Source of the DNA: Victivallaceae bacterium
Lineage (GTDB): Bacteria > Verrucomicrobiota > Lentisphaeria > Victivallales > Victivallaceae
Reading direction: 5' to 3'
Assembly: GCA_028691615.1 (NCBI GenBank)
Contig: JAQUYX010000001.1
Location: 491-64,490 of the forward strand
DNA length: 64,000 nucleotides
The notes beneath the pieces are model-generated. The model was not told the origin of the DNA. It saw only the letters and a program-made list of their open reading frames with translations, and made no database searches. The translations under genes were made by a program, and so were the position numbers. Every line of letters begins with the position of its first letter. The stretch's first letter is position 1. Below, in pieces: positions 24,810 through 53,962 of the stretch.

Positions 24810-24974
24810 GACGGCACTGACAAAAGTCCCGTCGATGGAATCCGGGTGGATCGGAACAGGAGTGGAATGGTGGATTTGAGCGTCGCTACTCGGAGAGTAA
24901 CGACCGAAAAGCCACCGTTTCAGGCCTTTTTCGAGGCACCGGAAGACACGACGCGAGTTTTGCCGAGTGCCGTC
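24810..24974 (+). repeat. 165-nt imperfect-palindrome repeat, copy A (reference copy)
   Basis: Termini GACGGCACT...AGTGCCGTC. Central hairpin GTCGCTACTC-GGA-GAGTAACGAC. The two arms are largely reverse-complementary. Confidence 0.85.
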
Positions 24975-25666: not shown

Positions 25667-25832
25667 GACGGCGCTGGCAAAAGTCCCGTCGATGGCTTCC
25701 GGATGAATCGGGAAAGGCGGTGGAATGGCGGATTTGAGTGTCGCTACTCGGAGAGTAACGACCGAAAAGCCGCCGTTTTCAGGCCGTTTCCGAGACGCCG
25801 GAAGACGCGGCGCGAGTTTGGTCAGGGCCGTC
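25667..25832 (+). repeat. Repeat copy B (166 nt)
   Basis: Full-length homolog of copy A. It overlaps the last 54 nt of gmhB on the opposite strand. Confidence 0.85.
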
Positions 25833-35870: not shown

Positions 35871-37718
35871 ATGAAAAGCAAGATCACAGAATCCTTTCGC
35901 CGCATTTTCGAACCGACGGAAACCGCCGTGGCCGCACGCTTTGCCGACCGCTCCATGATGATGACCCCCGACGGAGAGATCCGCCTCTACGGAGTGCGGA
36001 TTTTGGAGCATGAGGACGGACGCAAACAATTTCATTACGTCGTCCAGAAATCCTTCGACTTCGGAATCAGTTTTGCCGAAGAGTCGGTTCCCCCGGACGA
36101 CCCGGGCGCACGCGTGCAAAGCCCCTACTCCGGAGATTATCTCACGCTTCTGACCGGTTCGTCCCGCCCGCCTCTTCCGGCACACATTCGCTGCGAAGGG
36201 AGCGAATACTCCGCGGCGGTGCAGCATTCTCTCAGGGAGGACAAAGTTTTCCTCTTCCGCAGCACCAACGGTCCCGACGGCCCCTTCACCAGAACCAAAG
36301 TACTGGACACTCCACTGCAAATCCAGAGACTGCCGCTTCCCCTCAAACACCGGCAGCGGTGGATCGCCTGCGCCCAGCGGTGGGAGGGCGACAGATTCCG
36401 CCCGGCACTGCTGATCTCCGACGACGACGGCCGTTCGTGGCGCGAAAATTTGCTGCCTGCGCCCCCCTTCCAGCCGGAAATTTGTCCCCCGCACAAGGGA
36501 TTGCGCTGGCTTCAGACCGGCCCGGAACCTTGTGTGGCGGAGATGCCTTCCGGCCGGCTGATGATGATGATGCGCACCTCGGTGGATGTGCATTATCAAT
36601 GTTTTTCGGACGACGGCGGCGACACGTGGAGCGCAATGACCGCGTCAATTTTTTACAGCGTGGCGACAATGCCGGGAATCTACGCGCTCTCCGGCGGACG
36701 AATGCTGGCGGTGTGGAACAACACCACCCCGCTGCCGGAGCTGGATCACGCGACGCAGCCGGAACTCTCGGAGGAGGAACGCAACGGCAGATGGGAGGAT
36801 GTCTTCACCAATCGCGACGCGCTCCATGCGGCGATTTCCGACGACGAGGGCCGCTCCTGGCGCGGATTCCGTGAAATCGCGCTCAACAGCCACCGCAACG
36901 ACGGCGATTTGCGCACCGTCGGCGGCGCATGGGCGCTCTTCGACAAAAGCGTCCACCAGAATCAAGTGCTGGAACTGCCGGAAAATAAGGTGCTGGTGCA
37001 TTACGGACAGCATCCGGCCTGCACACGAACGATGATCTTCGATCTGGGGTTTCTCGATGCGACTGATCGCAAGGGGGATTTTTTCTCCGGCTTGCGCGAC
37101 TGGTCCACACAGCTGTATTACCGCAGCCACTCCGGCGGATTTCGCGGGGCGGGACATTGTTCGTGGAACCGCCGCAGCGGCGCCCAGCTCATGCCGTCGC
37201 CGGAGGGCGACTGGAAAGAGGCGCTGCTGATCGGACGACACCCGGACACACGGCTCTTCTCCGACCGGGAGGGGGCGGTGTGGAATTTTCCGGGAGCGCG
37301 CCGGGGCGAAGTGAATATGGATCTGACGTTGGGCGAAGGCGGCGGCGGGGCGCGCATCTCGCTGGCGGACCGCTGGATCAATCCCTGCGACGAAACGGTC
37401 GGAGAACTTTCGCCCTTCAGCTTTGTGCTTGATGGCGAGGGCAGGATCGGCGCGGTGAAACTTGCCGCACCGGGCAGGCGGTTTCGATTGCAACTGAAAT
37501 TCGACCTTGACAAGCGCATTTTGGAGATTGCCACGGAGCTGGGACGAATGGAAATGGCACTGAGCCAAACGCTGGTGTCGCCATTCGGAGAGACCAGAGA
37601 AATCAGTTATCTGCATGTGCAATCCGCAGCGAAGGGCGCGGATGATGTCGGGGTATGGCTTCACGAATCAAGCATGGAAAAGACCGACTCCCGCGATTTT
37701 CCATGCATTCGAGGTTGA
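35871..37718 (+). CDS. BNR/Asp-box repeat sialidase-like glycosyl hydrolase with C-terminal extra domain
   Basis: Three Asp-boxes (SDDDGRSW, SDDGGDTW, SDDEGRSW). No obvious signal peptide. Confidence 0.7.
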   Translation: MKSKITESFRRIFEPTETAVAARFADRSMMMTPDGEIRLYGVRILEHEDGRKQFHYVVQKSFDFGISFAEESVPPDDPGARVQSPYSGDYLTLLTGSSRPPLPAHIRCEGSEYSAAVQHSLREDKVFLFRSTNGPDGPFTRTKVLDTPLQIQRLPLPLKHRQRWIACAQRWEGDRFRPALLISDDDGRSWRENLLPAPPFQPEICPPHKGLRWLQTGPEPCVAEMPSGRLMMMMRTSVDVHYQCFSDDGGDTWSAMTASIFYSVATMPGIYALSGGRMLAVWNNTTPLPELDHATQPELSEEERNGRWEDVFTNRDALHAAISDDEGRSWRGFREIALNSHRNDGDLRTVGGAWALFDKSVHQNQVLELPENKVLVHYGQHPACTRTMIFDLGFLDATDRKGDFFSGLRDWSTQLYYRSHSGGFRGAGHCSWNRRSGAQLMPSPEGDWKEALLIGRHPDTRLFSDREGAVWNFPGARRGEVNMDLTLGEGGGGARISLADRWINPCDETVGELSPFSFVLDGEGRIGAVKLAAPGRRFRLQLKFDLDKRILEIATELGRMEMALSQTLVSPFGETREISYLHVQSAAKGADDVGVWLHESSMEKTDSRDFPCIRG

Positions 37719-37782
37719 AAAGTCGCCGTTGGCGGAGTATGTTATTTTGATCTTATATACTGGGAAAGGAAGGCCGTTAGTC

Positions 37783-38757
37783 ATGCAGGACGTCATCCAG
37801 ATTGCACACGAAGTCATCAATACCGAGATCCACGGAATCACCCAAGTGCGCGACAGCCTCGGCAAAGAGTTCACCGCCATGGTCGAAAAATGTATCGCCA
37901 CGCTCGACGCGGGCGGCAAACTGGTTCTGACCGGAATCGGCAAGAGCGGTTATATCGGCAAAAAGATGGCGGCCACGCTGGCCTCCACGGGATCTCCCTC
38001 GATTTTCATGCACCCGGTGGAAGCGCTGCACGGCGACCTCGGAATGCTTCAGAAACACGACTTGCTGATCGCCTTGAGTTATTCCGGCGAGACGGACGAA
38101 CTGCTGACCACGATGAAGCCGGCCAAGCGCCTCGGCGTCGAGATCGTCTCCATCACCGGCAACGCCAATTCCACGCTGGGCAAACTCTCGGAACTGGTCG
38201 TCCCCATGACTGTGGAACGCGAGGCATGCCCCTTCAATCTGGCGCCGACCACCACGACCACGGCGCTTCTGGCGCTCGGGGACGCGCTGGCCATCGTGCT
38301 GCTCAAAGTCCGCGGCTTCACCAAGAGCGATTACGGCCGGCTGCATCCGGGCGGCGCGATCGGACGGGCGGTGACGATGCGGGCGATGGACATCATGCGT
38401 TCGAAAGAGCGGTTTGCCTCGGCCACGGTGGACGTGCCGGTGCGCGAAGTGCTCTGCCGGATGGGACAGGCCCGTTGCGGAGCGACGGTGATCGTCGACG
38501 ACGGCAACAAGGTGCTTGGAATCTTCACCGACGGGGATTTCCGCCGCGCCGCGGAACGGGACATCACCGTGTTAAGCAAGCCGATCGGGGATTTCATGAC
38601 GCCCAATCCGGTCACTGTGCGGGACGAAGAGCTGGCGGTTTCCGTGCTGAAACTGGTGGAAGAGCGCAAGGTCAACTCGGTGATCGTCGCTGACAGTCAG
38701 GGGCGCGCGGTAGGCTTGATCGACGTGCAGGATCTTCCGGGCCTCAAATTAATGTAA
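37783..38757 (+). CDS. kdsD: Arabinose-5-phosphate isomerase (KdsD/KpsF; SIS + 2xCBS)
   Basis: SIS motif GIGKSGYIGKKMAATLASTG, tandem CBS domains; 324 aa. Confidence 0.9.
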   Translation: MQDVIQIAHEVINTEIHGITQVRDSLGKEFTAMVEKCIATLDAGGKLVLTGIGKSGYIGKKMAATLASTGSPSIFMHPVEALHGDLGMLQKHDLLIALSYSGETDELLTTMKPAKRLGVEIVSITGNANSTLGKLSELVVPMTVEREACPFNLAPTTTTTALLALGDALAIVLLKVRGFTKSDYGRLHPGGAIGRAVTMRAMDIMRSKERFASATVDVPVREVLCRMGQARCGATVIVDDGNKVLGIFTDGDFRRAAERDITVLSKPIGDFMTPNPVTVRDEELAVSVLKLVEERKVNSVIVADSQGRAVGLIDVQDLPGLKLM

Positions 38758-38802: not shown

Positions 38803-40275
38803 TTGATGCAATTTCATAAAAAACTCCTGCTGCTGGCCGGGGCTTTGCTGTTGCTTCGCGCGGTCTTTCTGGTCCTGCTTCCGCTTTCGGACCCTTCCGA
38901 AGCACGTTACAGCTTGATCATCAAACTGATGGCGGAGAGTAAGAACTATCTGGAACCCCAGTTGATCATGGGGGGGGAGCAAGTACCGTTTGCGGGAAAG
39001 CCGCCGCTCTATTTTCAGGCGGGGGGCGTCGCGTCGGAACTCTTCGGCGTGACGCTGTTCGCAGCGCGGCTGCCGGCATTTCTGGCGGCGGTGCTGCTGT
39101 TGGCAATGGTCTACTTGGGATTGCGGAAAATCAGCGATCCGGTCAGTGCGGCGGCGGCGGTGCTGCTGACCATTTCCGGCGGTTTTTTCTTTCTGCTGGC
39201 GGGAGTGGTCATGACCGATATGCTTCTGGCGCTGGCAGTGACGGCGGGAATTTTCTTTTACATGCTCTTTTCCGCCGAGACGGAGAAGCTGTGGAAAAAA
39301 GCGTACAGCATCGGCTTTTTTGCTTCGTTGGGAGTCGGGATGCTGGTCAAGGGACCGGTGGCGTTGGTGATGGCGGGGCTGCCGGTCTTTTTCTTTGTGG
39401 CGCTGAACAAACGCTGGGGAGAATTGCGAAACCATGCATGGATCGTCGGAAGCGCGGTTTTTTTGCTGATCGCGGCGCCGTGGTTTGTGCTCATGGCACA
39501 AAAAGATCCGGGATTTCTGGAGTATTTCTTCCTCAACGAAAATTTCAAACGGTTTCTCTTCAAAGAGTATGGCGACCGCTACGGGGCCGGCCGGGAAACC
39601 TTCCGGGGCATGGCGCTGGTCTGGTTTGTGGTGGCAAACCTCCCCGCATTGGTTCTGTTGATGCCCGCGTTGCGCAACCGCTGGCGAACGGCGTTCGGCC
39701 GCGATACCTGGCGGAATCCGGCGACAGCGCTGCCGCTGCTCGGGTGTCTTTGCATCACCGGGTTCTGGTGTCTGACCAGCCGGGTGCTGGTGACCTATCT
39801 TCTGCCGACGGCGCCGCTGGCGGCAAGCTGGATTGCCTTGCAGCTGAAAAATCGCGGATTCTGGGAGGAAAAGCAGTTTCAGACGCTGCTGGTGCGAGCC
39901 GGAGCAATGATCACAGTGCTGCTTGGAATTTCGCTCACCACGGTCATGCTGCTCGGACCGCAGATCAGCGACAAAATGCCGGAAAAATTTTACCGGGAGC
40001 TGCTCTTGCGTGCCGACGCGACGGCTGAGCTGCGGGAAAAATCGTTTTATTTTGCGGAGGACGTGCCGTTTTCCGCACGAGTGTACCTTCCGGCGCAGAA
40101 AATCCGCAAACATCCGGATGAATATTATGCCCTCAGCTGCCAGGAGAGCAAGAAGGACATTCTCTGCGTGCGGGATAAGGTGATCCGCAAAAACGGAGCG
40201 CCGCCGAAACGCCGGTTGCTCTTCCGAAGGGGCCGCTGGCAGGCATATGCGCCGGAGGAATCCAAGCAGCGCTGA
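38803..40275 (+). CDS. ArnT-like GT-C glycosyltransferase (GT83/PMT_2)
   Basis: ArnT-type motifs SEARYSLI (DExRYAE-like), GKPPLYF and GMLVKGP. ~12 TM segments. Confidence 0.8.
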   Translation: MMQFHKKLLLLAGALLLLRAVFLVLLPLSDPSEARYSLIIKLMAESKNYLEPQLIMGGEQVPFAGKPPLYFQAGGVASELFGVTLFAARLPAFLAAVLLLAMVYLGLRKISDPVSAAAAVLLTISGGFFFLLAGVVMTDMLLALAVTAGIFFYMLFSAETEKLWKKAYSIGFFASLGVGMLVKGPVALVMAGLPVFFFVALNKRWGELRNHAWIVGSAVFLLIAAPWFVLMAQKDPGFLEYFFLNENFKRFLFKEYGDRYGAGRETFRGMALVWFVVANLPALVLLMPALRNRWRTAFGRDTWRNPATALPLLGCLCITGFWCLTSRVLVTYLLPTAPLAASWIALQLKNRGFWEEKQFQTLLVRAGAMITVLLGISLTTVMLLGPQISDKMPEKFYRELLLRADATAELREKSFYFAEDVPFSARVYLPAQKIRKHPDEYYALSCQESKKDILCVRDKVIRKNGAPPKRRLLFRRGRWQAYAPEESKQR

Positions 40276-40628: not shown

Positions 40629-41924
40629 GTGATTGACAACGAGCGAGAGAACAGTAAAAAATTAGAACGGGCGTATCTAATCGGATTCCGCAGCCAATTG
40701 GAGTCGGAAACCACCGTTGAAGAGCACCTGGACGAATTGAGCGAACTGGTTCGTTCGCTCGAGTTGGACGTCTGCGGCCGCAGCACAGCGACCGTTCGAT
40801 TGCCCAGCCCCGCGCTCTACATCGGCAGCGGCAAGGCCGACCAGATCATCGCGGCGGCCAAAGAGGCACAGGCCAGTTGTCTGGTCTTCGACAGCCCGCT
40901 CTCGCCCTCACAGCAACGCAATTGGGAGCACCGCAGCAAACTCACGGTAATCGACCGCGAGGAAATCATCCTCGATATTTTCGGGGAACGGGCCTCCACG
41001 CGGGAGGCAGTTCTCCAAGTCGAAGTGGCGCGCCTCCAATATTATCTGCCGCGCCTCACCCGCGCATGGAGCCACCTCTCCCGGCAGCACGGCGGCGTCA
41101 CCGGGGCGCGCGGACAGGGCGAAACCCAGATTGAAACCGACCGGCGAATTGTCAAACGGGAATTAACCGTGCTGCGCAAGGAATTGGCGGAAGTGCGTTC
41201 CCGTCGAAGTGTTCAGCGGCGGGAGCGGGAGCGCTCGGGGATTGTCTGCGGCGCGATTGTAGGATACACCAACGTCGGGAAATCCTCTCTGCTCAACGCG
41301 CTGGCGGAATCGAAAGAGGTTTACGTGGCCGACAAACTTTTTGCGACGCTGGACCCGACGACCCGGCGGATTACGCTGGGGGGACAGCAGGAGCTGTTGC
41401 TGACCGACACGGTTGGATTTGTGCGCAAACTGCCGCATTCGCTGGTGGAAGCGTTCAAATCGACGCTGGAAGAGGCGATCGAAAGCGATTTTCTCATGCT
41501 GGTGATCAATCTGGCCGAGCCCAATTTCGAGCAGCAGTGGGAGACCACGCTTTCGGTGCTGCGCGAACTGGGCGCGGAGGAGAAAAACATTCTGATGGTG
41601 TTCAACCAGATCGACCGAGTGCCGCCGGACGAGTTGCCGATGCGCATGATTCGAGCGCGCAGTCTCTTCCCGGACGCGGTTTATGTGTCTGCGAAAACCG
41701 CCGAAGGGCTTGATGCGCTGCGGTTGAAGCTCGCGCTTTACGCCGGGCGCAACCGGCAGGTGATAGAGATCAAGCTTCCGCCCGCGCGCGCCGATCTGGC
41801 CGCGTTCGCGCATGCCCGGACAACCGTGCTGGAAGAAAGTTGTGACGAGGAAGGCAATTTCAAAATGCGGCTTTCGGCGGACGAAGCAATTGTGCATAAA
41901 TTCAATCCTTTTCTCTGCAAATAA
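40629..41924 (+). CDS. hflX: GTPase HflX
   Basis: GYTNVGKSSLLNAL P-loop, DTVGF, N-terminal HflX domain. GTG start. Confidence 0.9.
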   Translation: MIDNERENSKKLERAYLIGFRSQLESETTVEEHLDELSELVRSLELDVCGRSTATVRLPSPALYIGSGKADQIIAAAKEAQASCLVFDSPLSPSQQRNWEHRSKLTVIDREEIILDIFGERASTREAVLQVEVARLQYYLPRLTRAWSHLSRQHGGVTGARGQGETQIETDRRIVKRELTVLRKELAEVRSRRSVQRRERERSGIVCGAIVGYTNVGKSSLLNALAESKEVYVADKLFATLDPTTRRITLGGQQELLLTDTVGFVRKLPHSLVEAFKSTLEEAIESDFLMLVINLAEPNFEQQWETTLSVLRELGAEEKNILMVFNQIDRVPPDELPMRMIRARSLFPDAVYVSAKTAEGLDALRLKLALYAGRNRQVIEIKLPPARADLAAFAHARTTVLEESCDEEGNFKMRLSADEAIVHKFNPFLCK

Positions 41925-41929
41925 TCAGG

Positions 41930-42445
41930 AACGGAACGACGAAAATGAAACATAGTCCCGACGATGGATTTCAGATGGATTCGGAAGTGGAACGGAGAAA
42001 CGATTGTGAGGGTGGCTACTCGGAGAGGAACCACCGAAAAAGCAGGCCTTCAAGCCTTTTCCGAGCCGCCGGAAGACGCGCCGCGAGTTTGGGCAATGCC
42101 GTCACTTCAGACGGCACTGTCAAAAGTCCCGACGATGGATTCCGGATGGATCGGGAATGGGATGAAGTTCCTGATTGTGAGGGTGGCTACTCGGAGAGTA
42201 ACCACCGAAAAAGCAGGTCTTCAGGCCTTTTCCGAGCCGCCGGAAGACGCGCCGCGAGTTTGGGCAATGCCGTCACTTCAGACGGCACTGTCAAAAGTCC
42301 CGACGATGGATTCCGGATGGATCGGGAATGGGATGAAGTTCCTGATTGTGAGGGTGGCTACTCGGAGAGTAACCACCGAAAAAGCAGGTCTTCAGGCCTT
42401 TTCCGAGCCGCCGGAAGACGCGCCGCGAGTTTGGGCAATGCCGTC
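41930..42445 (+). repeat. Tandem array of three copies (C1 degenerate at its 5' end; C2=42110..42274; C3=42281..42445) of the 165-nt repeat, period 171 nt
   Basis: C2 and C3 are identical. A 6-nt ACTTCA spacer between copies creates CAATGCCGTC-ACTTCA-GACGGCACTG junction hairpins. Confidence 0.9.
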
Positions 42446-42454
42446 ACTTCACTT

Positions 42455-45400
42455 TTGATCCTTCTACTGCTCCTCGGAGGGCCATCGCTAACCTCCGCCG
42501 AAAATTTTTCGCCTTGGGACGCATGGCGGCAGGGGTATGTCCTGACCGAAAAAGGGCGTACTGCATTCGACAAAGGAGATTACAAAACCGCCCGGGAAAA
42601 TTTCCGGCAGGCGCGGGAGTGCTACACCCAGATCAAGACCGAACGCCCCGATTGGAACCACAAGATCATCGATACGCGAATCTCGATCTGCGATCAGGAA
42701 TTGGCCAAAGTCTCCGGGAAAATCGGGACGGGGGAACCCTCGCCCAAACCAGCCGGAGTCGCCGCGCCAACCAAGCCGTCCGGCAGCGAAGATTTTGATT
42801 CCGACGCATCCGGCGACCTCTATCGACTGCGCAACGAACTGGCCGCGACACGCCGCAAACTGGTCGCCGATTCGGTCGAAATCGAGGAGCTGCGCAAACA
42901 GCTGCGCAACACCAAGGCGACTTCGGCGGAGATGGAAAATCTGCTGCGCGAAAAACTCCTTCTTCAGGAAAAATACGAGCTGCTCGACCGCCGTTTCCGC
43001 GAATTGGAGAAACAGTCCGCCAGTCCCAAGGGAGAATTGCAGCAGGCGCAACGCCAGCTCGACGAGGAGAAGTTGCACTCTTCCGCCGCACGCCGCCAAG
43101 TGCAGGAAGTCCAGCAGCGCCTCGATAAACTCACCGAGGAAAACGCCTCGCTCTACCGGATGCGCAATCAATTGCGCAGCGAGCTGGAAAAAAGCGAAAA
43201 AGAACGCAACGATTTGAAGACTTTGCGCACCAGCGCGGAAAATCTGCGCCGTTCCTTCGACATCGAACTGGCGCGGCTGCGCGACGAAGTGTCCAGTTTG
43301 AAGCGGCTGCAGGATTCTGCGGAAAAAACCGCCTCGACCTTGCGCGAAGAGAACACCAAACTTTACCGTTGGCTCGAAGAGGCCCGCAAGGGCGGCGAAT
43401 CCAGCAGCAAACTCAACACCGAGGCCACCGCGGAAAATAAGCGCCTCCTCGGGGAGCTCGCGCGGCTCACCGCCGAAGTGGAAAAATCCGCCAACGCCAA
43501 AGCCGACGCCATCGCAGAACTCAAACGCCTGCGCGATGAAAACGAATCCTTTCGCTCTTCCACCGCCAGACTTGACGCACGAAACCGCGAATTGGGATCG
43601 GCCGTCCAGCGCCAGACGGAGTTGTTCGACCGGCTGCGTCAGGACGCGCTCAACACCGAGGCCGAACGCAAGAAATTGAGCAATCAACTTGCCGAACGCG
43701 AACGCGAACTCAAGGATTGGATCGACCGCTGCGAGACGCTTAAGAAGCGTCAGCAGACCAGCAGTGAAGCCGAACTTGCCGGAATTTCCGCGGCAAACGA
43801 GGCGCGCCGCCGCCTCGAGCAGGAAGTCTCCGAACTGAAAATCTCGCTCCGGGAAGCACAGATTCGCCACAATCTCTCCACCGACCGGGTGGCCGTGCTG
43901 GAGGCGCAGGAGAAGGAAACCGCAAGTCGGCTGCGAGCGCTTCAGACCACGCAAAAAACGCAGGAGGAAGAGCTCAAACGCCTTCGCCCCGTCCGCAACC
44001 GCGTCCTCGCATTGGAGACAGAAAAGTCCGCGCTGGAACGCAACATCGCCGCATTGAAGAAGGACGCGGCAACAGCCGCCGTAACCGAAAGCGAGCGCAA
44101 TCACCTGCGCGCCGAAAATATCAAGCTTACCGAAGCGAACGCACAGTTGCAGCCCTTGCAGCAAAAAATAGTTGCGGCAGACCGCCTCAACCAGCAGTTG
44201 AGCAACCGGGTCGTTGCACTGGAAAACAAGCACCACCTTGCCACGCAGGAAGCCGTCCGCTTGACGAAAACACTTGCAGAGACCACCAAAGAACTGAATC
44301 TGCAATCCTCCCGTTACAGCGCCGCGATCGCCGACGCCAGAGTGCTGTCGGACAAAGCCCTTGCCAACAGTAAGGCCATGTTGACCGAAGCCACCGAAAA
44401 TTACAACGCACTCCTTCCCAAATACACCGCCGCGACGCAGGAACTTCGCGCCCAATCCGCAGAACTGAAAACCCTCCGGGAGAACGCGGCTCGCGAGAAG
44501 GAGACCATCGCACAAAACACCCGTCTGCGCGAGGAACTTGCCACCCTCTCTCGCCTCCGCGCCGCCGAAAAAGCAGCAGCAGCAGCCGCATCGGAGGCGT
44601 TGAGCAAACAACTTGCCGGGGAGAAGACACTGGCAAACGCCATCGCCGCCCGTCTCAAAGAGGCGGAAAAAGCGCAGAGTTTATTCCGACAGGACTCCCG
44701 CGCACGCCTGGAGAGCGCAACTCAGGCGCGCGCCGCCGCCGAAGCAGCCACTCGCAAGGCGGAGGAACGCATTGCCCTGCTTGAACAGGAGGCGCAGGCC
44801 AATCTCCGGCGCGAGCAGGAATTGACCCGGCAGCTTTCGGAGGAACGCATTCTTCTGGCCAAGGCGCAATCCGCCGCCGCAGCCGAGGATTCCGGCAAGC
44901 GCAATGCCACCGAACGCGAAAAAGCATTCACCGATCGCATCGCACAACTTCAAAAAACCGTCAGCGAAGGAGAACTGCGCGCAAAGGAGCTTTCCACCCG
45001 CCTCGCTCAGGAGAAAGAACTCCGCCAAAAAGCGCAGGCCGCCGCCGCGCAGCACGCCGCGCAGATCGCCCAAAGCAATGCGCAAGCCGCGCAAATCCAG
45101 CGCAACCGCAACGCTTCTCTCGAAGAAGAACTCGCCGCCACCAAAAAAGCGCTCGCCGATGCGAATGCTGCGACCGCAAAGGCGCAAAGCCTCATCGATT
45201 CCGGCAATCACACCGCCAAGGCGAACCGCGATCAACTCGCTTCTCTGACGGGAGCGCTCACCGCAAAAAAACAATCCATCGACGCGCTGCAAAAAGAGAT
45301 CGCTTCGCTGCGCAATAAACTCGCACTCGTCTCGGCTCCGGTGAAAACCGCTCCCGCCCCTGCGCCCGTGGTCGTTCCGGTGCCGAAAAATACCCCCTCC

Positions 45401-46534
45401 GCCGCAGAAATCACCGCGCTCCGGCAGGAGTTGGCCGCCTCCATCGAGCGCGAAAAAGCATTGACGGCAAAACTTTCCGCCGCCGCCATCGTCCGTCCCG
45501 TCGTCCCGAAGAGCGCTCCCCTTCCGGCGCCTTCCATTTTGCCTGCCCCGTCGATTCCTCCGGCAGCGCAGGATGTCGATTTTTCCAGCTATCTGGCCGG
45601 CGGCAGGAAAGCACTTGCGGAAGGCAACGAGGATCTCGCCGTCTGGAATTTCCGGAAAACACTCGAAATCGATCCGGGCAATTTCGAGGCAAATTGTCTT
45701 TTGGGCAAACTCTACCTCGCACGCGACCAGTTTCCCGAAAGCGCGGCGGCATTGCAAAAAGCCTGCGTCGCCGCACCGGACAATCCGGAGAGCGCCGCGC
45801 TCTACGCCGAAGCACTGCTCGCACAAAACAAGCCGGGCAACGCCCTTGAAATTGTGGAAAAATTCGCCAAGACAAAAAATCCCGCCCCCGCGATTCTTTT
45901 GACTTACGGACGGGCGCTGACCGGCGCCGACCGCGGCGCCGACGCCGTGACGGTTCTGGAACAATTCACCGCAGCACAACAAAAATCCGCCCCCGGGGCC
46001 CTCGCGCTTGCGTCGGCGCTGGCCAAAGCCGGTCGCGACAAGGATGCCGCCGCCGCCTACCACCGGGCCAGAAAACTCGGCGCCGCCCCGGACGCCCGTC
46101 TGGAAGAGCTGACGAAAAAGTCCGGTCAGACGACCGCGGACGAACAAATGCTGCAATTCCTTCGGGAAACCGCCGCCGAAGCGGAAAAATCCGGCGATTA
46201 CGCCTCCGCTCTCTGGTATCAGCTGGAGATCGGCAAATATCGCGGCAGTCCGGAGAATAAACGCAGCATCGGCGCATTGATGGCGCTCTCCGGCGACGGT
46301 GACGGCGCCTTCGCATTGGCCAAGACGCTTCCCGCAGGTACAGATCGGGAGGTGATCTCCGGCATGGGCGCATTTGCCAAGGGCGATTTCGAGGCGGCGC
46401 AAAACCATATGCGCAAGGCCGCCTCCGGGCGCATTGATCCGGCCGTGCTCGCCCGGCTCGCAAAACAGATCTCCGGCAAACAGGACGATCGTGCCGCACA
46501 AGCAATCGCCGCCGCTCGAAAGCTGCTGAAATGA
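42455..46534 (+). CDS. Giant coiled-coil protein with an N-terminal hydrophobic signal/anchor, an N-terminal TPR-like module and a C-terminal TPR domain. Start uncertain; alternatives are the ATG at 41945 or ATGs inside the repeats.
   Basis: ~1000 aa of uninterrupted A/E/L/K/R/Q-rich heptad-like sequence. LLILLLLLGGPSLTSA hydrophobic segment, Pro-rich linkers, and TPR-like C-terminus (EIDPGNFEANCLLGKLYL...). The first in-frame ATG downstream of the repeats is ~330 codons in, so I propose the TTG at 42455. Confidence 0.7.
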   Translation: MILLLLLGGPSLTSAENFSPWDAWRQGYVLTEKGRTAFDKGDYKTARENFRQARECYTQIKTERPDWNHKIIDTRISICDQELAKVSGKIGTGEPSPKPAGVAAPTKPSGSEDFDSDASGDLYRLRNELAATRRKLVADSVEIEELRKQLRNTKATSAEMENLLREKLLLQEKYELLDRRFRELEKQSASPKGELQQAQRQLDEEKLHSSAARRQVQEVQQRLDKLTEENASLYRMRNQLRSELEKSEKERNDLKTLRTSAENLRRSFDIELARLRDEVSSLKRLQDSAEKTASTLREENTKLYRWLEEARKGGESSSKLNTEATAENKRLLGELARLTAEVEKSANAKADAIAELKRLRDENESFRSSTARLDARNRELGSAVQRQTELFDRLRQDALNTEAERKKLSNQLAERERELKDWIDRCETLKKRQQTSSEAELAGISAANEARRRLEQEVSELKISLREAQIRHNLSTDRVAVLEAQEKETASRLRALQTTQKTQEEELKRLRPVRNRVLALETEKSALERNIAALKKDAATAAVTESERNHLRAENIKLTEANAQLQPLQQKIVAADRLNQQLSNRVVALENKHHLATQEAVRLTKTLAETTKELNLQSSRYSAAIADARVLSDKALANSKAMLTEATENYNALLPKYTAATQELRAQSAELKTLRENAAREKETIAQNTRLREELATLSRLRAAEKAAAAAASEALSKQLAGEKTLANAIAARLKEAEKAQSLFRQDSRARLESATQARAAAEAATRKAEERIALLEQEAQANLRREQELTRQLSEERILLAKAQSAAAAEDSGKRNATEREKAFTDRIAQLQKTVSEGELRAKELSTRLAQEKELRQKAQAAAAQHAAQIAQSNAQAAQIQRNRNASLEEELAATKKALADANAATAKAQSLIDSGNHTAKANRDQLASLTGALTAKKQSIDALQKEIASLRNKLALVSAPVKTAPAPAPVVVPVPKNTPSAAEITALRQELAASIEREKALTAKLSAAAIVRPVVPKSAPLPAPSILPAPSIPPAAQDVDFSSYLAGGRKALAEGNEDLAVWNFRKTLEIDPGNFEANCLLGKLYLARDQFPESAAALQKACVAAPDNPESAALYAEALLAQNKPGNALEIVEKFAKTKNPAPAILLTYGRALTGADRGADAVTVLEQFTAAQQKSAPGALALASALAKAGRDKDAAAAYHRARKLGAAPDARLEELTKKSGQTTADEQMLQFLRETAAEAEKSGDYASALWYQLEIGKYRGSPENKRSIGALMALSGDGDGAFALAKTLPAGTDREVISGMGAFAKGDFEAAQNHMRKAASGRIDPAVLARLAKQISGKQDDRAAQAIAAARKLLK

Positions 46535-48201
46535 CCGGTCCGAAACGCCGGAAAATTCTGCTCTTTGCCGCGATCGGGGTCGTCGCCGCGGGGATTCGCC
46601 TGTACGTGCTGGCGGCGCTGAAAAAGTCGAGCTTCTTCCAGTGGAACACGCTTGACGGACTGGATATGTCCACATTTCTGGCACGAGCAAAGGCGTTGCG
46701 GGAGGGAACGTATTCGATTCTTCCCTATGAGACAATTCTCGCGCTGGCCGGAAGTGTGGAGAATATGATTTTGTTCCAGATGTTTCTCGGCTGCATGACA
46801 GCGCTGCTGATCGCGTGGATCGCGCTGCATTTGACCGGGAAACGGCTCTACGCACTGATCGCGGGATTGGCGGCGGCGGCCTACGCGCCGGAAGTGATGT
46901 ACGAAGGATTTCTCCTGCGCGAAAGCGGGATTGTTTTTCTCCTGACCGCAAGTTGCGCGGCAACCATTCTCGCCCACGGCCGACGCACGGAGAGAATCGG
47001 ATTCCCCCTGCTGGGCGCACTCACCGCCGTCGCCGCCTTGATGCGCTTCTCCAATTTCATCTGGGCAGCAACCCTCTGGGCAATGGCGGCCGCCTCCCGC
47101 CCCGCCCCCGCAAAACGAAAATACTCGATTGCCGCAATGCTGCTCATGATGCTCCTCCTTTACAGCGCGCCGCACCTCTGGAACCGGGCAAAAAAAATAT
47201 CCACCGGCGCGCCGATCCAATTATCCTACCTCGCCTCGGCCTCCGCGTCGGGAACGATCGGCACCCCCGCAACCGCCCCGGACAGCACGGCGTCCACCGT
47301 GGGCGCAATTGTGCGCAAGCTCCCCCAAAAGATATTCTTCCTGCTCGGCCCGGAGGAACTGCCGAACAACCTGAATTATCGCTTTGTCCGGGAAATGCTT
47401 CCGCTGCCGCTGCCCGGAGATCCGGTATGGCTCTTTCCGCTGGGCCTGATGGGATTGGCGCTCTGGGGCATCCGCCGCAAGACGAGGAAGCGGGCGCTGG
47501 CATTGGCGGCAGTGTTCGCGGCGACCGCGTTGCCGATTGTGCTGTTCCTCCCGCTGGGACGGTATCGGCTCAGTCTGACGCCGATCCTCTTGATCTGTTT
47601 TCCGGCTGTCTTTCTTGGAGGAGGAAAACGCGCGCACAAAATTGCGCTGGCGGCCACGGGAATCGCACTGGTGCTCGGCTATTGGCACCTTCGCCCGGAA
47701 AGCGCACAGACGTTCCGCAGCGCGGATTTCCTCAATCATGGACATGCGCTCAAACGAATGCCAAACACTCCGCCGGATGCGGTCATCGACGCATATCTCA
47801 TGGCATTGACGTTGGATCCCGGCAACCGTGCCGCGCTGGTCAATGCGTTCAACACGGCAATGGCCGACGGATCCCGCGACAAAGCGCTGACGGCGGCGCT
47901 GACCGTACGCAAAGTCTTCCCGGAGGACACGGTCGCACAATACTACCACGGGTTGCTGCTGGCTTTTGCCGCGCAACCCCAAGAGGCGGAAAAGATCTTT
48001 GCAGCGATCCGGTTCGACCAGCTCGACGGGATGCAAGCGCCGTATTGCTATTATTACGGAAAACTCCTGCTCCGGCGCAATGCCAGAGAGGAAGCCGCAA
48101 AGCTCTTTGCCAAAGGCATTTCAGCTGCCCGGAACGCTCAATTGCGCATGCTCCTCACACGCGAGCTTGACAAGCTCGAAAACGCCCGCAAGAAATATTG
48201 A
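46531..48201 (+). CDS. Polytopic membrane protein with C-terminal TPR domain (TMTC-like GT-C + TPR architecture)
   Basis: ATG overlaps the upstream stop (ATGA). Many TM segments. ELPNN motif shared with the 17738..19636 protein. C-terminal TPR-like repeats (LTLDPGNRAAL...). Confidence 0.6.
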   Translation: MTGPKRRKILLFAAIGVVAAGIRLYVLAALKKSSFFQWNTLDGLDMSTFLARAKALREGTYSILPYETILALAGSVENMILFQMFLGCMTALLIAWIALHLTGKRLYALIAGLAAAAYAPEVMYEGFLLRESGIVFLLTASCAATILAHGRRTERIGFPLLGALTAVAALMRFSNFIWAATLWAMAAASRPAPAKRKYSIAAMLLMMLLLYSAPHLWNRAKKISTGAPIQLSYLASASASGTIGTPATAPDSTASTVGAIVRKLPQKIFFLLGPEELPNNLNYRFVREMLPLPLPGDPVWLFPLGLMGLALWGIRRKTRKRALALAAVFAATALPIVLFLPLGRYRLSLTPILLICFPAVFLGGGKRAHKIALAATGIALVLGYWHLRPESAQTFRSADFLNHGHALKRMPNTPPDAVIDAYLMALTLDPGNRAALVNAFNTAMADGSRDKALTAALTVRKVFPEDTVAQYYHGLLLAFAAQPQEAEKIFAAIRFDQLDGMQAPYCYYYGKLLLRRNAREEAAKLFAKGISAARNAQLRMLLTRELDKLENARKKY

Positions 48202-48736: not shown

Positions 48737-49279
48737 ATGAATCTCTTCTGGAAAAACGGCAATCCATCCACGACGGTCAACTCCGTCGGAGAATGCCTTG
48801 TATTTCCGTGGGGAGGAGGCCAGCCGGATTGCAGAACGATGGTGGTTTCAAGCGCGAAAGTCCCTGTTGCCCTCAACGGAGACGTGACGATCACATGGAT
48901 CGCCGCTCTTACCGGTGACGTTGTCGGGTGTCTTGCGGATTTGCCGCGTTATATCGAAACCAGTAGGAAGTGTCATCTGTCGGTCGGTGAAAGTGGACTC
49001 CGGAAGGAGTTTTTCACATGGAAAGCGCCGATCTTTCGGATTGATGCGCACATTCTCAGATTCGGAGCAGGCAAAATTCCGATTCGGATCGATGTTCCCG
49101 ATTATGCTGCAGTTTCCTGGACGGTCAACGGGTTATGGAACCAAAGGCCATACGGTCTCTGGCATGCCGCTGCCCTCACGGAAGGACGAAGCATCGGGGG
49201 AATCCGCCGCACAGAGCCATACCGGATTTTTTCCGGAGAGCGCAAAGTGTGTGATCTGGTCGGCTGCCGACGCTGTTGA
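48737..49279 (+). CDS. Hypothetical protein
   Basis: 180-aa ORF in a lower-GC stretch. No recognisable motif or clear RBS. Confidence 0.3.
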   Translation: MNLFWKNGNPSTTVNSVGECLVFPWGGGQPDCRTMVVSSAKVPVALNGDVTITWIAALTGDVVGCLADLPRYIETSRKCHLSVGESGLRKEFFTWKAPIFRIDAHILRFGAGKIPIRIDVPDYAAVSWTVNGLWNQRPYGLWHAAALTEGRSIGGIRRTEPYRIFSGERKVCDLVGCRRC

Positions 49280-53682: not shown

Positions 53683-53792
53683 ATGGAGGATTTGAGCAAA
53701 AGCGACTGGGCAAGTTCCGCCCCGAAAAGCCACCGTTTCAGGCCTTTTTCGAGCCGCCGGAAAACACAACGCGAACTTTTCCGAGTGCCGTC
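53683..53792 (+). repeat. Repeat copy D1 (5'-truncated, central hairpin diverged)
   Basis: The 3' ~75 nt align with other copies and end in GAGTGCCGTC. Confidence 0.7.
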
Positions 53793-53798
53793 CACAGA

Positions 53799-53962
53799 GA
53801 CGGTGCTGACAAAGATCCCGTCGATGGATTCCGGATGGATCGAGAAAGGAATGGAATGGTGGGTTTGAGCGTCGCTACTCGGAGAGTAACGACCGAAAAG
53901 CCACCGTTTCAAGCCTTTTTCGAGCCGCCGGAAAACACAACGCGAACTTTGTCAGCACCGTC
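53799..53962 (+). repeat. Repeat copy D2 (164 nt, perfect 12-bp terminal inverted repeat)
   Basis: GACGGTGCTGAC...GTCAGCACCGTC. Central hairpin identical to copy A. Confidence 0.85.

Follow-up and report, generated by a model that had tools for sequence, protein, structure and literature searches.

The window analysed here is a 64,000-nucleotide stretch of contig JAQUYX010000001.1 (positions 491 to 64,490 of the forward strand) from the assembly GCA_028691615.1 of a Victivallaceae bacterium. It contains a gene, hereafter the rod gene, for a large protein in which an extended coiled-coil region (the rod) connects an N-terminal head domain with a C-terminal tail of tetratricopeptide repeats (TPRs). 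The open reading frame (ORF P0001) comprises 1529 codons and a stop codon; its parts and its two direct neighbours are listed in Table 1. In an earlier note on this DNA, made from the sequence alone, the protein was taken to start at 42455, which is a TTG codon within the hydrophobic segment near the N-terminus; the true start of the ORF is the ATG at 41945, and its stop is the TGA at 46534. The parts described in that note are present in the plus-strand translation. They include the hydrophobic N-terminal segment LLILLLLLGGPSLTSA (residues 170–185), the TPR-like module DKGDYKTARENFRQARECYTQIK (residues 209–231), a Ser/Pro/Asp linker followed by a long region rich in Ala, Glu, Leu, Lys, Arg and Gln, and the two Pro-rich linkers APVKTAPAPAPVVVPVP and PLPAPSILPAPSIPP. 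Two antisense ORFs, 42488–44611 (minus strand, 707 residues) and 44681–47020 (minus strand, 779 residues), overlap the rod gene. They are regarded as shadow frames of a purine-rich coding strand (AT skew 0.25–0.30), because conservation tracks the protein encoded on the plus strand.

Table 1. Features of the rod gene and of its direct neighbours (positions in the window; aa, residue numbers of the rod pre-protein).
Feature	Position	Strand	Basis or remark
hflX (GTPase)	40629..41924	+	Pfam GTP-bdg_N, GTP-bdg_M, MMR_HSR1
Whole rod-gene ORF	41945..46534	+	1529 codons + stop; orthologs in 37/41 related genomes
Native start ATG and predicted signal-peptide n-region (MKH)	41945..41953	+	20 nt 3' of the hflX stop; orthologs start MK/MR + hydrophobic core
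In-frame array, 2.9 copies of a 171-bp (57-codon) dispersed repeat	41954..42451	+	Tandem Repeats Finder, genome blastn; absent from orthologs
Predicted signal-peptide h- and c-regions (LLILLLLLGGPSLTSA)	42452..42499	+	aligned with ortholog signal peptides; cleavage after TSA predicted
Head domain, aa 186–262: one TPR motif + third helix, MIT-like three-helix bundle	42500..42730	+	alignments, AlphaFold2, Foldseek
Ser/Pro/Asp/Gly-rich disordered linker, aa 263–287	42731..42805	+	AlphaFold2 local confidence; S/T/P-rich ortholog linkers at the equivalent site
Coiled-coil rod, aa 288–1129	42806..45331	+	heptad test, AlphaFold2 secondary structure, conservation, occupancy, composition
Two Pro-rich linkers around a 27-residue helix (aa 1153–1179)	45332..45574	+	translation, Pro positions, AlphaFold2
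C-terminal TPR domain, aa 1211–1529	45575..46531	+	Pfam TPR_17 + TPR_19, alignment, profile matches
556-aa polytopic membrane protein with C-terminal TPRs, GT-C/PMT-like (weak)	46531..48201	+	start overlaps the rod-gene stop (ATGA)

The N-termini at 20 related loci, of which 17 belong to the same family and 3 to other families of the order, point to export of the rod protein. All 20 begin with Met followed by Lys or Arg, a hydrophobic core and small residues, after which the conserved sequence (D/E)FSPWDAWRQGY follows directly. Without its repeat array the window allele reads MKH-LLILLLLLGGPSLTSA|ENFSPWDAWRQGY, with ENFSPW after the bar, which is the ortholog layout. The array is thus inserted, in frame, after codon 3 and before the hydrophobic h-region of a predicted Sec-type signal peptide, so that 166 codons part the n-region from the h-region. 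A cleavable type I signal peptide calls for a positively charged n-region, a hydrophobic core of 8–15 residues, small residues at −3 and −1 and the lack of a lipobox Cys; this pattern was judged by eye, in the orthologs and in the window allele after removal of the repeat. Inspection of the 20 ortholog N-termini revealed no canonical lipobox. From this pattern we infer Sec export, with cleavage after TSA (an AxA-type pattern), which would yield a mature protein of about 1,343 residues (residues 186–1529) that is soluble in the envelope and most likely periplasmic. Of the earlier description of the protein as exported or anchored, the first half is supported, since the ortholog signal peptides look cleavable and are free of a lipobox, while anchoring could apply at most to the present repeat-bearing allele.

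The head is the best-conserved part of the protein, with a mean column identity of 54%, invariant W, A, P and W residues, and near-invariant I, R, I and C residues, the last being Cys249. By sequence it consists of a single TPR motif followed by an extra, capping helix. Its profile matches consensus TPR proteins over profile positions 10–39, and the TPR_2 model matches the head below threshold. In the AlphaFold2 (AF2) model, calculated from 21 sequences, the head forms three helices with a predicted local distance difference test score (pLDDT) of 97.2 and a predicted template modelling score (pTM) of 0.86. The closest structures in the PDB found with Foldseek are the MIT domains of Sulfolobus Vps4 (PDB entries 2v6y and 2w2u), with TM-scores of 0.85–0.87, root-mean-square deviations of 1.4–2.0 Å and expectation values (E) of ~1e-2. 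MIT domains (PF04212), which occur in Vps4, spastin and archaeal CdvC, are likewise three-helix TPR-like bundles; they are cytoplasmic and bind ESCRT-III tails. The head, in contrast, follows a predicted signal peptide, and its sequence identity to MIT domains is 12–15%. Ten of the 21 heads give sub-threshold matches to PF04212 at E ≤ 1, the best with an E of 7.9e-4; none of the 21 reaches the gathering score of this model, and the head of the window protein is not among the significant matches. Judged from the predicted model, the likeness is a resemblance in fold rather than a demonstrated homology. Neither the head nor the overall architecture of the protein is covered by a model in the Pfam and NCBIfam scans.

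The linker that follows the head is modelled with pLDDT values below 50 (model residues 77–106), and the orthologs have Ser/Thr/Pro-rich linkers at the equivalent position. At the other end of the molecule, the tail is a bona fide multi-repeat TPR domain of ~320 residues, as had been proposed from the sequence. Residues 1223–1289 match TPR_17 (PF13431) with 30.1 bits (cut-off 24.4) and TPR_19 (PF14559) with 30.3 bits (cut-off 25), and the ortholog tail profile can be aligned with OGT, CTR9 and consensus TPR structures for a length of about 150 positions; MamA is matched as well. The conserved motifs of the tail are VA.WNYRK.L...P.N.EAN, Y..ARKLGA.PD..LEK and FL..AA.EAEK..D..SA.WYY.QL. In three order-level orthologs (L028–L030) the motif Y..A(R/K)KLGA.P...LEK.L recurs at the extreme C-terminus, and the recurrence suggests that this second copy might serve as a repeated docking or capping element.

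The region between head and tail has the properties of an extended coiled coil, as the earlier note had claimed. In the AF2 model it consists of six long helices (residues 288–358, 365–482, 487–673, 684–766, 791–980 and 985–1129), which together span residues 288–1129. Its composition, calculated for residues 306–1135, is 17% Ala, 13% Glu, 13% Leu, 10% Arg, 8% Lys and 7% Gln, with 1% each of Gly and Pro. Within the same range, 41% of all 28-residue windows show a heptad contrast at positions a and d above the 95th percentile of composition-matched shuffles, against only 4% of the windows in the TPR domain, and the register is steady over runs of 60–140 residues. The coiled-coil signal thus exceeds what would follow from composition alone. 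With about 840 residues the rod is shorter than the ~1000 residues estimated earlier, and it is not entirely free of Cys, as one such residue (Cys596) is present. Fully extended, its 842 residues at 0.1485 nm each would measure about 125 nm, in agreement with the earlier view that it is too long for the width of a periplasm. Leu dominates the core positions, whereas Val and Ile together occur 15 times at a and 2 times at d, and Asn is found 4 times at a. According to established coiled-coil core rules (Harbury-type), such a preference favours parallel dimers. The rod is thus probably a parallel two-stranded coiled coil, although this is a weak inference. No internal sequence repeats were detected in the rod at E < 0.01.

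Conservation is distributed unevenly along the protein. In 19 orthologs the identity to the window protein is 0.36–0.43 for the head, 0.24–0.33 for the first ~120 residues of the rod and 0.24–0.38 for the tail. In the remainder of the rod it is 0.04–0.24, with an occupancy of 0.25–0.7 between about residues 700 and 1200. The conserved beginning of the rod carries the motif NLLREKR.L..KY and a near-invariant Pro361. Differences in ortholog length begin, within the rod, at about residues 700–760 of the pre-protein. An ortholog of 935 residues is colinear with residues 188–762 and then with the tail, so that the additional residues of the window protein form a single block where the rod approaches the tail. 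Because this block lies at the tail end and not in the middle of the rod, a linear spacer fits better than a single fold-back hairpin, in which added length would be expected at the tip.

The rod gene is a single-copy core gene of the Lentisphaeria. Whole-genome searches detected the protein in 37 of 41 relatives, and a search with the head profile gives a single copy each in 31 of 32 genomes of the same family, in all 24 of the same order and in 9 of 10 of the same class. Among 134 other genomes of the phylum, 50 have weaker head matches, which cover profile positions from about 10 to 74. In the distant matches that were sampled, the head is located near the N-terminus, and the 12 N-termini that were read out all have a hydrophobic segment in front of it. 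These distant members keep the motif P.W...R(I/L)..C, followed by sequence rich in Ala, Glu, Leu, Lys, Arg and Gln; five of nine that were scanned end in TPRs. Head-bearing ORFs range from about 370 to 2,675 residues in the search table, and the proteins read out from 371 to 2,654 residues. When 1.84 billion cluster representatives were searched exhaustively with the profile, 598 matches at E ≤ 1e-10 were obtained. Among the best 150 of these, about 100 are single full-length head matches at residues ~20–100 of proteins of about 900–1,850 residues, and the rest are multi-TPR noise. A word-indexed homolog search with the whole protein was swamped by coiled-coil words and returned only one true relative. 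At one related locus (L027, G012:C3, 9447–10160 and the next ORF), the ortholog is split into pieces of 237 and 691 residues, for which a frameshift, a stop codon or an assembly error are possible causes.

As expected from the earlier note, the rod protein belongs to no established family: no Pfam or NCBIfam model covers it, and models of SMC proteins score below threshold. TIGR02168 gives 35.3 bits against a cut-off of 567 and TIGR02169 gives 21.6 bits against 729, and only model positions 289–477, in the coiled-coil arm, are matched. Like SMC proteins, the rod protein has a long heptad-rich helical region that weakly matches this arm; unlike them, it has a predicted signal peptide and lacks an ATPase domain, none being found in the Pfam and NCBIfam scans. 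In the public records of ten family members only one is named, as a 'chromosome segregation ATPase'; from the sequence comparison, this name is a coiled-coil artefact. Literature searches for Lentisphaerae or Victivallis together with coiled-coil, TPR or periplasm returned nothing on the rod family. The family is thus undescribed, although its general kind, an exported coiled-coil/TPR adaptor, is known. What sets it apart is its size, the MIT-like head, the strict conservation within one class and the plasticity in length, and it needs a correct name.

On balance, the rod protein is probably a periplasmic two-ended coiled-coil tether or envelope scaffold, as judged from its sequence and the predicted models. 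A structural role of this type is the most economical explanation of a docking module at each end, conserved ends, a drifting spacer and a near-universal single-copy gene. Head and tail both have predicted folds that would bind peptides or helices of other proteins, and the TPR tail would be attached through flexible Pro-rich linkers. As a spacer, the rod would tolerate drift in its sequence and several-fold differences in length between lineages. A rod of about 125 nm, which in the longest relatives would exceed 300 nm, would have to lie along the periplasm, fold, or be located outside the cell. As a tether, the molecule would lie along the envelope rather than across it and could link partners over tens to about 125 nm; alternatively, rod molecules might join one another into a periplasmic mesh. 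The filament or lattice formation put forward in the earlier note is likewise a conjecture. In part of the clade, the membrane protein encoded downstream may dock to the rod protein, or may O-glycosylate its Ser/Thr/Pro linkers; this is a speculation by analogy that draws on the known activity of PMT-type enzymes. With conserved docking ends on either side of a rod that ranges from a few hundred residues to over 2,000, the family is a concrete candidate, open to experimental test, for a scaffold or ruler of the envelope. The cell biology of the Lentisphaeria and their PVC relatives is largely unexplored. If the protein is only a passive linker, the finding reduces to the routine annotation of an unnamed family.

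Several observations weigh against a periplasmic tether. The Sec cleavage site and retention in the periplasm are predictions, and secretion past the outer membrane is possible. In this genome 166 codons break up the signal peptide, so that the present allele may be mis-targeted or may have lost its function. Global confidence in the AF2 monomer model of the rod is low (pTM 0.28), and its neighbours in Foldseek are antiparallel helical hairpins, for instance Tsr, colicin and SMC arm fragments; the rod may thus be folded back on itself. With the 1,030-residue model, none of the Foldseek matches has E ≤ 0.001; they comprise generic helical hairpins and the MIT matches of the head. No weight was given to this model for the quaternary arrangement. 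Finally, the only constant genomic partner of the rod gene is hflX, which gives no functional clue and whose linkage is lost outside part of the order.

The strongest alternative is that the rod protein is secreted across the outer membrane and forms a fibril that projects from the surface or contributes to slime or matrix, comparable to the dimeric coiled-coil fibrils on the surface of other bacteria, with the TPR domain or the head holding it to a partner in the outer membrane. A rod of this length, unfit to span the periplasm even in the window protein and still less so in the 2,600-residue relatives, is consistent with such a location, as are a predicted signal peptide combined with the absence of a lipobox and of a membrane anchor, and a rod length that varies strongly between lineages, as it does in surface fibrils. 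The Pfam and NCBIfam scans, however, gave TPR models only and no wall, outer-membrane-anchor or secretion-related domain, and no secretion-system genes recur among the neighbours. In addition, strict single-copy conservation across the class suits a housekeeping part of the envelope better than a surface structure of variable kind. A surface fibril is considered unlikely.

A periplasmic tether may also be envisaged in a more elaborate form. In this picture, parallel dimeric rods of lineage-specific length would constitute a periplasmic skeleton of the Lentisphaeria and related Verrucomicrobiota, in which the rods join head to tail, the MIT-like head of one dimer docking into the TPR tail of the next, or in which they cross-link envelope partners; the mesh so produced would underlie the outer membrane and determine the architecture of the envelope, and in part of the clade the GT-C-like/TPR enzyme would anchor or O-glycosylate it. 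Such a skeleton is a doubtful proposition at present. To our knowledge, periplasmic structural polymers are almost unknown, and CrvA and CrvB are the only well-studied precedent for a periplasmic 'skeleton'. These two proteins of Vibrio cholerae, which make up periskeletal filaments, are exported to the periplasm and polymerise into a structural assembly with no need for nucleotide energy (bioRxiv 10.1101/2020.02.20.954503). They establish that periplasmic polymers exist, and are a precedent for the simpler tether or scaffold as well; the rod protein is likened to them by description, and its own polymerisation is a proposal only. CrvA and CrvB are confined to curved Vibrio-type cells, in which they set the curvature, whereas the rod family is encoded by a core gene of the Lentisphaeria and has TPR and MIT-like ends.

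A further possibility, which could hold together with any of the others, concerns the present genome only. The repeat array encodes residues 4–169 of the pre-protein (166 codons, 498 bp) and has a period of 171 with a 95% match between its 2.9 copies. A blastn search of the whole assembly with one unit gave 131 matches, on many contigs and on both strands. The matches beyond the rod gene show identities of 71–90%, often comprise units of ~150 nt, and are sometimes arranged in tandem pairs or triplets. On account of these 131 dispersed matches, the array is regarded as a dispersed mobile repeat that is foreign to the ancestral protein. In line with this, the repeat segment was found in no ortholog at the 20 loci or in the searches of related genomes. 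The gene may thus be crippled in this organism, with export rendered faulty by an array that separates the start and the charged n-region from the hydrophobic core, and with a frame that is open merely because the event is recent. The absence of the array from all orthologs and its position between codon 3 and the h-region are compatible with this explanation, and copies 2 and 3 are 100% identical, which indicates a recent insertion or amplification. The array, however, spans exactly 166 codons, contains no in-frame stop, and leaves the remaining 1,360 codons intact. Moreover, its last copy provides an in-frame ATG at 42317 and an Arg-rich stretch in front of the core, which might together serve as a long n-region. 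A crippled allele is rather improbable. As read from the sequence, the pre-protein has either a cytoplasmic extension of 166 residues, rich in Arg, Ser, Asp and Gly, or a start at the ATG at 42317. The repeat-bearing allele thereby constitutes a natural experiment on how far a signal peptide tolerates an insertion.

Two side observations concern the same repeat. The end of the last copy (42400–42452) encodes ...AAGRRAASLGNAVTS just ahead of the hydrophobic core and yields a twin-arginine-like n-region, which would be an accident of the insertion and shows no sign of use. Other copies of the ~150–171-bp repeat are present in the window at 24825–24974, 25682–25832, 53737–53774 and 53816–53945, and several tblastn matches to the repeat sit within open frames of 370–552 residues, so that other genes may carry in-frame copies.

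The last candidate to be compared is CpoB (YbgF), a soluble periplasmic protein–protein adaptor. CpoB has about 260 residues, of which about 60 form a coiled coil; it has no N-terminal head domain, and its gene belongs to the tol-pal operon. It resembles the rod protein in having a signal peptide, a coiled-coil oligomerisation region and a C-terminal TPR domain, while the rod protein differs by its ~840-residue rod, its MIT-like head and the position of its gene after hflX. Membership of this family was rejected, as the NCBIfam scan gave no match to TIGR02795 (cut-off 90.1 bits) and the rod gene is not part of a tol-pal cluster. A search with TIGR02795 in 21 related genomes returned the rod orthologs only as weak TPR-type matches (E of 2e-8 and 1e-4). 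An oversized counterpart that couples wall synthesis to outer-membrane constriction via Tol-Pal-like partners would share the order of parts and is consistent with two further findings, namely that none of the 21 relatives has a CpoB above the curated cut-off although a single TolB-like propeller protein is present in every one of them (E about 1e-59), and that a distant family member has a sub-threshold match to TolA_bind_tri (E 3e-4); this is nevertheless very improbable, given that the rod protein matches neither TIGR02795 nor PF16331, that CpoB itself has only a short coiled coil and no head, that the rod gene lies away from tol/pal genes with the TolB-like gene on another contig in a non-tol context, and that the lack of a canonical CpoB counts for little, since the cut-off is reached in only 2 of 14 control genomes. 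The TolB-like beta-propeller gene (G000:C213:3684-4844; E 5e-59, below the TIGR02800 cut-off) is the only one of its genome and is located, outside a tol-pal cluster, between a gene for a protein of 805 residues and, past a 98-residue ORF, a gene whose N-terminus resembles by eye that of LacI-type regulators.

The genomic surroundings of the rod gene are conserved on its upstream side. The earlier note had taken the rod gene to be the first gene of a unit; instead, an hflX ortholog (50–61% identity) lies directly upstream at all 20 related loci. In the relatives the two genes usually overlap, stop with start, or nearly touch, and the rod gene is predicted to be co-transcribed with hflX in the Victivallaceae. 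The product of hflX is, by family annotation, presumably a cytoplasmic ribosome-associated GTPase. At 18 loci from more distant members, with two other families of the order among them, the linkage is gone.

On the downstream side, the ATGA overlap with the membrane/TPR gene is real (ATG at 46531–46533, TGA at 46532–46534), but the pairing is less tight than the earlier note suggested. The two genes adjoin at 8–9 of the 20 loci and in only about 13 of 41 genomes; the membrane/TPR gene is located elsewhere in about 18 genomes and was not detected in 10 genomes that keep the rod gene. GT-C glycosyltransferases such as PMT and ArnT are polytopic, and the first of their loops outside the membrane contains a conserved acidic residue. 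The proposed assignment of the membrane/TPR protein to this class is weak: three of nine orthologs match the PMT model PF02366 (best E 3.5e-5), and the sequence Gly43-Leu44-Asp45-Met46 (GLDM, loop 1) is invariant after the first hydrophobic segment, but the 556-residue protein of the window itself gave no PMT match in the Pfam scan. It also weakly matches the LA_3751/LA_3752 putative glycosyltransferase family (E 0.027). The hydropathy scan of this protein is too coarse to place its TPR domain. Beyond hflX and the membrane/TPR gene, nothing recurs near the rod gene at the related loci, and no conserved neighbour was found for the distant members.

Three other genes of the window lie close to this group. 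An ORF of 180 residues (48737–49279), without a match in Pfam or NCBIfam, is situated between the membrane/TPR gene and a paralog of EF-G. Just upstream of hflX, 38803–40275 encodes a membrane enzyme of the GT-C class and ArnT/PMT type, which matches PF02366 with an E of 2e-17 and NF009784, below its cut-off, with an E of 8e-26; 37615–38757 encodes a SIS+CBS sugar-phosphate isomerase of the KdsD/KpsF-like type. Upstream of hflX at the 20 related loci, the isomerase occurs in none and a weak PMT-like ORF in one (L025, E 1e-6).

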